From: Pseudomonas phage CRPAP1904
Sequence record: PQ741025.1
Strand: one strand, 5' to 3'
Length of the DNA: 62,430 bases
Below, in pieces: positions 59,878 through 60,553 of this stretch. The notes under the pieces were generated by a model. The model saw only the letters and a list, made by a program, of their open reading frames with translations. It was not told the DNA's origin and did no database searches. Numbering within the stretch: the first letter of the stretch is position 1; each line of letters opens with the position of its first letter. A program made the translations under genes and the position numbers.

Positions 59878-59937
59878 TTCCAGGCTCCTGTGGGTGACTA
59901 AAATGAAGGATCTGGTCACAGAGTGACGGAAAGTACA

Positions 59938-60185
59938 TAAAAAATTTCGTGACACGCTGGAGCCTTAGTGCCACGCGGGTTTGCGCCGGGTGGCACCGAG
60001 GTTTTGTCACGATCTTCAAAAAATTTCGTAACAGGCTGGAGCCTTAGTGCCACGCGGGTTTTCGGGGTTTTGGCCGGGAAATTTTGTCACGATTGTCACG
60101 ATCTCAAAAAATTTCGTAACACGCTGGAGCCTTAGTGCCACGCGGGTTTGAGCCACTTTTGTCACGAATGTTACGAAGTTCTGCG
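59938..60185. repeat. three tandem 80-88 bp direct repeats (iterons), each carrying AAAAAATTTCGTAACACGCTGGAGCCTTAGTGCCACGCGGGTT followed by a TTTTGTCACGA element
   Basis: Read directly. Confidence 0.8.
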
Positions 60186-60498
60186 CTATTCCGCTACAGA
60201 TACAGTGTATATGTGGCCCTATATACTTATTAACTATATCTATTATTATTTTTTTATTTTCTGTAGTGGAATAAAGAAGAAAAGATCGTAACATCGTAAC
60301 AGAAAGCTCTGTGCCCCTAGTGCTGCCTGGGCTGGAGCGTGTTACGAAATTTTCGTTGGTGGACGGAATTTCGTAACATCGTGACGGTTGTTGAGAGTCA
60401 GTCTCATCCTGTTTGGAACGAAATCGTTACAGCGATAGAAAAAGCTAATTGGTTTCAAGAAACAACCACTTAGGTTAGCGATCGATACAGAAAGGGCG

Positions 60499-60540
60499 GA
60501 GGGGAGAAGGGGGCGGGTCGGCCCCCTCCGATCCCCTCAC
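60499..60540 (-). terminator. GC-rich nested hairpin (GAGGGGAGAAGGGGGC-GGGTCG-GCCCCCTCCGATCCCCTC), likely terminator of the leftward small module; abuts palindrome CACACGTGTG
   Basis: Read directly just past the stop at 60554. Confidence 0.4.
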
Positions 60541-60553
60541 ACACGTGTGGAAA

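Follow-up and report, generated by a model that had tools for sequence, protein, structure and literature searches.

Two candidate iteron-type replication origins in Pseudomonas phage CRPAP1904

Satellite phage P4 carries ori together with a second element, crr. In work from 1995, Ziegelin and Lanka are said to have found that the P4 alpha protein binds octamer iterons (TGTTCACC) both in ori and in crr, which consists of direct repeats and is required in cis. The alpha protein combines a primase, an SF3 helicase, and a C-terminal winged helix (PMC2777425). The ori of SaPI elements contains 6–12 short iterons and an AT-rich centre with at least two opposed iterons on each side, and it is bound by the C-terminal winged helix of a self-loading SF3 Rep (PMC9371898); PICI origins fit the same description (PMC6092414). 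[quoted passage not shown] Forks are proposed to stall where the initiator occupies oriR, which would trigger the switch to concatemer synthesis (PMC6316719; PMC3485210).

The circularly permuted genome of Pseudomonas phage CRPAP1904, a member of the genus Kochitakasuvirus, was analysed over its whole deposited length of 62,430 bp (the window; PQ741025; 60.4% GC). The literature searched on this genus makes no mention of repeats, promoters, or origins. We describe two AT-rich, non-coding islands in this genome, A and B, which are probably iteron-type replication origins or, more broadly, origin-type elements to which an initiator binds.

In terms of layout, the islands resemble the SaPI and PICI origins in having opposed iteron sets around an AT-rich centre and in using iterons that are specific to a lineage. 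The first-pass annotation had read the combination of iterons, AT core, and inverted repeat as an origin, and this reading is supported insofar as the layout matches the SaPI/PICI anatomy and is kept at both positions in distant relatives. The differences are also clear: the iterons are 5–6 bp long in SaPI and PICI elements and 8 bp long here (12 bp with an AA-N-W extension), the genus of CRPAP1904 lacks the adjacency of origin and initiator gene and has the module twice, and in most relatives the module is found 5′, not 3′, of the initiator gene. CRPAP1904 is, moreover, a 62-kb lytic podovirus and not a satellite, and its island B adds three units of 79–88 nt to the basic arrangement.

SPP1 provides the parallel for a genome in which the repeat and AT-rich layout occurs twice, and the earlier statement that two such islands are unusual was too strong in view of oriL and oriR (PMC6316719). 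The machinery differs, in that SPP1 uses gp38, the loader gp39, and the DnaB-type helicase gp40, whereas CRPAP1904 has an SF3 primase-helicase and no DnaB-family helicase or loader domain was found in its screened ORFs. The SPP1 geometry differs as well, with oriL inside gene 38 and the origins about 13 kb apart on 44 kb. In P4, a distance of about 4.5 kb separates ori from crr, compared with 30 kb between the islands here, and there is no detectable sequence similarity between the two systems.

Anatomy of islands A and B

The left part of island B is made up of three tandem direct repeats (59939..60185; unit starts at 59939, 60018, and 60106), which repeat comparison shows to be spaced by 79 and 88 nt and 90–96% identical across 49 nt. 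The first-pass annotation had reported tandem iterons of 80–88 bp at 59938..60185; the three units stand, with the start and spacing adjusted to the values given here. In each unit, a GC-rich 27-nt segment (CGCTGGAGCCTTAGTGCCACGCGGGTT) is accompanied by a single '>' site (AAAAAATTTCGTRACA) and by one or two '<' sites (TGTCACGA), a layout that is identical in phages KPP25, phiR18, and YMC17/07/R4900a. A 41-mer, AACCCGCGTGGCACTAAGGCTCCAGCGTGTTACGAAATTTT, which is composed of one octamer site and the GC-rich 27-nt segment, occurs three times on the minus strand of island B (59941–59981, 60020–60060, and 60108–60148). With up to three mismatches allowed, a genome scan located its sole copy elsewhere on the plus strand of island A (29887–29927), and none of 100 shuffled sequences contained a match. 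The repeat formerly described as a 38-mer is real, but the string recorded for it has 43 nt, and the unit that counts is not this repeat but a 12-bp site. The copy closest to the ATG at 59877 is 62 nt away by measurement, close to the earlier figure of about 65 nt.

The AT-rich core of island B (60218..60285, no strand assigned) has 19% GC, is presumed to be a DNA unwinding element, and ends in TTTTTTTATTTTCTGTAGTGGAATAAAG; within it, positions 60257–60276 match island A exactly. A tandem iteron dimer with an 8-nt period, TCGTAACATCGTAACA (60286..60301), adjoins the core on its right, on the plus strand; it is also found at the equivalent place in island A and in the relatives' islands L012, L004, and L140. 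There follow a degenerate copy of the 41-mer in plus orientation (60313..60353), which ends in TGTTACGAAATTTT, and an inverted iteron pair, TGTTACGA-N23-TCGTAACA (31 nt start to start), and then a degenerate TCGTGACG, the pair and this last site together spanning 60340..60386. The inverted repeat proposed earlier is perfect over 12 nt, with TGTTACGAAATT (60340–60351) complementary to AATTTCGTAACA (60367–60378) at 12 of 12 positions, and the region containing it, taken as single-stranded DNA, folds with z = −3.3. The right border of the island is marked by a GC-rich terminator-like hairpin on the minus strand (60497..60537), which is placed after the stop of the upstream leftward gene (60554–60970); it was recognised by direct reading of the sequence and was not flagged by a simple scan. 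Overall, the features first noted in island B are present where they had been placed or within a few bases.

Island A (29660..29956, no strand assigned) consists of a '>>' dimer on the left (29667–29682), three '<' sites with 9-nt spacing (29717–29742), an AT core of 20% GC (29795–29859), a '>>' dimer right of the core (29860–29875), the plus-strand 41-mer, and an inverted pair at 29914/29945. Alignment of the two islands reveals a common module of about 168 nt in the same orientation, with 60215..60382 in island B corresponding to 29791–29956 in island A and with TTTTCTGTAGTGGAATAAAG identical in both. Island B is thus a paralogue of island A, as had been suggested, and the shared core of about 20% GC was also correctly described. 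The left halves of the islands differ, the common part being confined to this core module. The 12 windows of 80 nt with the lowest GC content in the genome are all located in the two island cores. The islands lie 30.45 kb apart on the 62.43-kb circle (48.8%).

The shortest common denominator of all island repeats is the octamer TCGTRACA. It is present in 22 copies in the genome, compared with 3.8 expected, and 21 of the 22 are within the two islands, counts that agree with the multiple short specific repeats of an iteron origin. An alignment of 51 oriented sites from six islands (A, B, and four in relatives) extends the octamer to a 12-bp site, AA-N-W-TCGTRACA, with A at position −4 in 48 sites and A at position −3 in 43. 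There are about 12 sites per island around the 19% GC core. The '<' sites are mostly left of the core and the '>' sites mostly right of it, and such opposed sets around an AT-rich centre are present in A, B, L004, L012, and L140 and, with iterons of their own, in the more distant L143, L144, L195, L152, L154, and L211. Inverted pairs are spaced by 11, 20–21, or 31–32 nt start to start, which equals one, two, or three helical turns.

Islands in close and distant relatives

Island B is 90–96% identical to its counterparts in KPP25, phiR18, and YMC17/07/R4900a. When islands and flanks are compared among the genus's four sequenced members, identity is 97.6–98.9% for island B and 88–97.5% for the coding DNA flanking it, and 98.9–99.4% for island A and 93.7–98.2% for its flanking coding DNA. 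Both islands are better conserved than most of the adjacent coding DNA and are under purifying selection.

Searches with single-protein loci returned near-identical phages only, and an alignment-based search reached further relatives. A 62,440-bp metagenomic phage contig has islands at both syntenic positions, L004 corresponding to island A and L012 to island B. L004 is flanked by the first gene of the fibre cluster and by the counterpart of the 2107-aa virion protein (43% identity overall and 59% across the C-terminal 607 aa); the 2107-aa protein itself has no sequence match in the PDB. L012 is flanked by homologues of the island B neighbours, which are 51% and 38% identical. An orthologue of island A is also present in L140, which represents a third lineage (48% identity). 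L004, L012, and L140 retain the exact octamer and the succession of dimer, core, and inverted pair, with divergence of the sequence between sites. Neither the 79–88-nt tandem units nor the GC-rich part of the 41-mer can be recognised in these relatives at 48–59% identity, and both appear from the sequences compared to be specific to the genus. Conservation in related phages extends across four close relatives and on to L004/L012 and L140; in L141 and L142, whose virion proteins are 27–29% identical, the island is absent after that gene. A scan of IMG/VR with the core motif TTTCTGTAGNGGAATA gave 98 stretches, which were dismissed as chance matches, octamers being nearby only in the relatives already known.

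The presence of two islands can be rationalized in another way, with one of them firing and the other acting as an accessory initiator-binding site, be it an enhancer resembling crr of P4 or a fork barrier that sets off the theta-to-sigma switch, as proposed for oriR of SPP1. This proposal draws on the unlike left halves of the islands, which share only the core module of about 168 nt, and on their near-diametric placement, which recurs in the distant relative with about 31 kb on 62.44 kb. It also has a precedent in the proposal that gp38 of SPP1 stalls forks at oriR (PMC6316719; PMC3485210). However, conserved gene order is sufficient to account for the spacing, the full set of iterons, AT core, and inverted iterons is present in both islands, and no sequence feature separates an active copy from an inactive one. 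We regard this arrangement as quite unlikely; it is a variant of the origin model and is inseparable from it by sequence alone.

A scan of IMG/VR by alignment with the primase-helicase of CRPAP1904, an 801-aa protein, yielded 80 loci, of which 57 were retained as dereplicated loci with full flanks; their primase-helicases are 37–46% identical to the 801-aa protein. The lowest-GC window of the approximately 8-kb locus is located at most 700 nt upstream of the primase-helicase gene in 48 of these 57 loci (4.8 expected), and the upstream islands have iterons, an AT core, and inverted iterons in the same layout as in CRPAP1904. The iterons of the relatives, identified by direct reading, are TCTTCCAA, ATTCCAA, CCTAGCA, CATCTCAT, CTATCTA, CTACTAC, and TCGTAAGG. 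At least seven iteron classes track the identity matrix and tree of the primase-helicases, consistent with iterons that are specific to the initiator lineage, yet the iterons of L195, L211, and L222 differ even at 59–63% identity of their primase-helicases. In L013 (40% identity), TCGTAACA-type sites and a TTTTCTGTAGAGGAATA core lie directly upstream of the primase-helicase gene. An element composed of a T-run and CT is found in 35 of 62 relatives' cores, compared with about 20% of shuffled cores. In the relatives, the island has a terminator on one side and the primase-helicase gene on the other, a place in which a promoter or operator is also expected.

Because upstream islands recur in most relatives, the association of the module with the primase-helicase gene is considered to be ancestral. 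Phages of the Kochitakasuvirus-like clade have the module at other positions and in two copies. In CRPAP1904, the primase-helicase gene is about 11.4 kb from island B and about 16.5 kb from island A, so that the origin candidates do not adjoin the initiator gene as the islands of L013 and of the 48 relatives do. The octamer is also used outside this group: in L015, an unrelated low-GC element, a PriCT_1-D5_N-DUF5906 gene is followed directly on its 3′ side by an AT-rich palindrome with TCGTAACA arrays around it. BLASTP of CRPAP1904 against the unrelated octamer-using phages L015, L030, L022, and L035 found no common domain, and the octamer that they have in common is treated as a coincidence or as convergence.

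Short repeats combined with an AT-rich segment are known in pac and centromere sites as well, and the genomic context of the module varies among relatives, as might be expected if the islands were packaging (pac or terminase-binding) sites, partition sites, or a mobile element repeated in intergenic DNA. A packaging role fits poorly with two copies per genome, each at least 4.9 kb from the terminase gene (2706–4574), and with linkage to the primase-helicase gene rather than to terminase. With regard to partition, a Pfam screen of 40 ORFs, 38 of them on the leftward arm, gave no ParB/ParA-type protein. The iterons vary with the primase-helicase lineage while the layout stays constant, which speaks for co-evolution and not for transposition. 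These three roles are therefore very improbable.

Gene context and the promoter question

Island B is located between two leftward genes. To its right, the deposited record contains at least four leftward genes, which are homologues of ORF029–026 of KPP25; ORF025 and the divergent start region are beyond coordinate 62430, across the junction of the circularly permuted genome. The first-pass annotation had placed the island upstream of the early leftward operon. Leftward genes do lie downstream of it, but others lie upstream, so that the leftward gene block does not begin at island B. Each island has a terminator-like hairpin before it and a gene cluster after it, namely the leftward genes from 59877 beyond island B and the fibre genes from 30141 beyond island A. 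GC skew was considered as an origin marker, but it tracks the coding strand and is uninformative on replication.

This placement between a terminator-like hairpin and a gene cluster would also suit islands that are purely transcriptional, in which the 41-mers are promoters, or the octamers operators, for the genes starting at 59877 and 30141 and which have no origin role. In both islands, the 41-mers are directed at the genes downstream, inverted repeats with helical phasing are typical of operators too, and the island of the relatives occupies the place where the promoter of the primase-helicase gene must be. However, a sigma-70 consensus scan (−35/−10, 16–18 nt) found no site on the relevant strands, minus in island B and plus in island A, a result that leaves room for weak or activator-dependent promoters. 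No RNA polymerase was found with Pfam and PHROGs in the 40 ORFs searched, 38 of them in the leftward arm, and the screen of the same ORFs gave no sigma factor, HTH regulator, or other recognisable transcription factor. The 41-mer is confined to the islands, and its GC-rich part is not recognisable in the 48–59% relatives.

The behaviour of the module in relatives is likewise difficult to reconcile with a role in transcription alone. Its orientation with respect to neighbouring genes flips, the module being inverted relative to its flanking genes in L012 as compared with CRPAP1904 and differing in orientation between L013 and most other relatives. It is kept in two copies away from the primase-helicase gene, and the number of sites per island around the AT-rich core exceeds what an operator needs. 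A purely transcriptional function is accordingly unlikely in our judgement, and the earlier proposal that the 38-mer, now the 41-mer, is itself a promoter is not upheld by the consensus scan, the ORF screen, or the distribution of the repeat.

Several specific candidates were rejected. The TGGCAC in the 41-mer suggested a sigma-54 promoter, but direct reading shows that it is followed by CTCC where TTGC is needed and that the −12 GC is absent. An N4-type hairpin promoter was discarded on the basis of folding, as the 41-mer folds no better than shuffled sequences (z from −0.6 to +0.6). No Rfam match to a known structured RNA was obtained anywhere in the genome, and a CRISPR-like array was dismissed on account of its spacers, which are not unique and have TTTTGTCACGAT in common. 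The tandem conserved units beside an AT-rich segment are superficially reminiscent of the primary origin of T7, in which an AT-rich segment comes after tandem phage promoters and which underlies the first-pass notion of a transcription-activated origin. In contrast to T7, CRPAP1904 has no phage RNA polymerase in the 40 ORFs screened and does not use the 41-mer elsewhere in its genome, and its repeats resolve into octamers, putative protein-binding sites, in both orientations.

The origin reading leaves a place for transcription. Given that a terminator-like hairpin precedes each island, a promoter is likely at some point within the islands; each island may contain a promoter in addition to its origin-type module, and a promoter that coincides with the origin, as first suggested, is compatible with the present results.

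Candidate initiator and origin model

The candidate initiator is the 801-aa primase-helicase (46477..48879, minus strand), which has an SF3 helicase core (Pfam DUF5906) and more than 2,200 homologues. The other replication proteins encoded by the phage are a family-A DNA polymerase, an SNF2 helicase, a PD-(D/E)XK nuclease, and an AAA ATPase. A search of PDB sequences matched the 801-aa protein to the NrS-1 helicase region (E = 3e-25), and a Foldseek search with its AlphaFold2 model (mean pLDDT 89.7) matched the helicase region of the NrS-1 primase-polymerase (E = 2e-26, target TM 0.79), with further matches to poxvirus D5/E5, SaPI5 PriRep (7ola), PriRep1-dsDNA (7pds), and ASFV PrimPol. Pfam, PDB sequence, and Foldseek results are thus consistent with the notion that the phage encodes an SF3 helicase initiator. 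The initiator of SaPI and PICI elements is an SF3 helicase, in SaPI5 fused to a primase, and has a C-terminal DNA-binding domain; the CRPAP1904 protein resembles SaPI5 PriRep and PriRep1 in fold.

The C-terminal domain of the 801-aa protein (residues ~705–757) is predicted by the model to have a winged-helix-like topology, H-β-H-H-β-β; a fold search with the isolated domain gave no significant match. The putative recognition helix (KFTS..KHH) hardly varies from one iteron class to another and shows few class-specific substitutions. In a sliding-window comparison, the excess of same-class over different-class identity peaks weakly at residues ~375–416 and ~667–751, a signal that is confounded by phylogeny. 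The near invariance of this helix, and the distance of both islands from the primase-helicase gene, weigh against the model set out below. The N-terminal domain appears to contain an AEP-like DxD/H/D pattern, whereas the primase domain of P4 alpha is of the DnaG type.

In the proposed mechanism, which is modelled on SaPI Rep/PriRep and P4 alpha, the 12-bp sites AA-N-W-TCGTRACA are opposed on both sides of a presumed unwinding element of about 65 nt and 19–20% GC, and the primase-helicase would bind these sites through its C-terminal domain. Hexamers would assemble on each side of the core and then melt it, after which the primase-helicase would prime synthesis and hand over to the phage family-A DNA polymerase (PolA) for extension. 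Six to eight extra binding sites next to the core module would come from the three tandem units of island B. The model assigns no function to the GC-rich 27-nt part of the 41-mer. Binding of the octamer by the 801-aa protein, melting of the core, and firing of either or both islands in vivo are inferred.

A more elaborate scheme, which we consider improbable, would have the paired islands form one replication programme. One island would fire, and the other, occupied by the same primase-helicase, would act as a programmed fork barrier or theta-to-sigma switch or would couple fork passage to the switching on of the tail-fibre operon, with the GC-rich half of the 41-mer binding a second factor.

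The kind of element is a known one, the iteron origin of self-loading SF3 initiators, which had previously been unannotated in this phage group. Its local peculiarities are the two copies far from the initiator gene, the 8+4-bp site, and the genus-specific tandem array. Kochitakasuvirus phages, among them KPP25, phiR18, and CRPAP1904, are in development for the therapy of Pseudomonas aeruginosa infection, and most of their genes are unannotated. For this genus, the analysis yields two precise origin candidates and a candidate initiator. The islands are candidate phage-dependent replicons and regions to spare in phage engineering, and the more than 2,200 homologues of the primase-helicase, whose gene in most of the sampled relatives has a similar element just upstream with iterons that vary by lineage, could help to reveal how self-loading SF3 initiators read DNA.

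Surroundings and spacing of the islands

Between island A and the first gene of the fibre cluster lies a GC-rich leader of ~180 nt (window 29961-30140), which is 98.9-99.4% conserved in four phages, above the coding sequence 3′ of it, and in which no promoter and no RNA family was detected. In distant relatives, the gene for the giant virion protein is separated from island A by a small Cys-rich ORF (intergenic positions 1-300 in L004, reverse complement, from a 62,440-bp relative, and L140:5866-6160, from a third lineage). This ORF resembles a zinc ribbon and is absent from the window.

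The two islands, at window 29800 and 60250, are separated by 48.8% of the circular map. In the 62,440-bp relative, IMGVR_UViG_3300009026_000010, they lie at ~2,900 and ~33,850, ~49.6% apart. This near-half-map spacing may be wholly explained by conserved gene order.

Other genes and coding-region repeats

The 2107-aa virion structural protein (window 23252-29575, plus strand) has no Pfam domain, and a PDB sequence search returned no match. Compared with one relative, identity is 59% over the C-terminal 600 aa and 43% over the whole protein. A hidden enzymatic function, such as that of a virion RNA polymerase, is conceivable. Early-region genes of possible interest, all on the minus strand, encode a pentapeptide-repeat protein (window 58192-59265), a DUF3268 zinc-finger protein (57429-57959), and a protein with an Nmad5 (nucleotide-modification-associated) domain (44894-45652). 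Short in-frame tandem repeats with periods of 9-21 nt occur within coding regions at window 2008-2107, 6530-6581, 7061-7151, and 56774-56844, the last comprising 7.9 copies of GGCTGGGCT.

The octamer in unrelated viruses

Clusters of the octamer (TCGTAACA or TCGTGACA) are also present on unrelated viral contigs of low, mid, and high GC content (L015:4224-4466, L030:2570-2860, L035:1405-1555, and L022:1789-2430). A scan of the neighbouring ORFs in three of these contigs showed a replication gene with the cluster immediately on its 3′ side; the gene encodes PriCT_1-D5_N-DUF5906 in L015, DnaG zinc ribbon-DUF927-HTH_56 in L030, and AAA_25 in L035. The clusters of L015 and L030 also have an AT-rich stretch. 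Because BLASTP revealed no protein in common between the window and these contigs, the shared octamer is read as coincidence or convergent specificity.

The 41-mer and the AT-core edge

The origin model leaves one half of the 41-mer unaccounted for, the GC-rich CGCTGGAGCC..TTAGTGCCACGCG, which occurs at window 59955-59981, 60034-60060, 60122-60148, 29887-29913, 29690-29716, and 60305-60339. The plus-orientation copy in island B carries CTGGAG in place of its complement, CTCCAG. A loosely similar sequence, GGCT(A/C/G)(G/C)AGCG, separates the right-hand dimer from the inverted pair, both in L140 and in L012, the island B locus of the 62,440-bp relative.

One edge of the AT core carries a recurrent element, a T-run and then CT(A/G), exemplified by TTTTCTGTAG and TATTTTCTATA. 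It is seen at window 60249-60276 in island B and 29823-29850 in island A, and in the cores of more distant primase-helicase relatives (L143, L144, L149, L152, L195, L197, and others). Present in 35 of 62 cores versus ~20% of shuffles, and placed 10-25 nt from the first iteron, the element is kept even where the iterons of the lineages differ, and could serve as a priming or helicase-entry signal.
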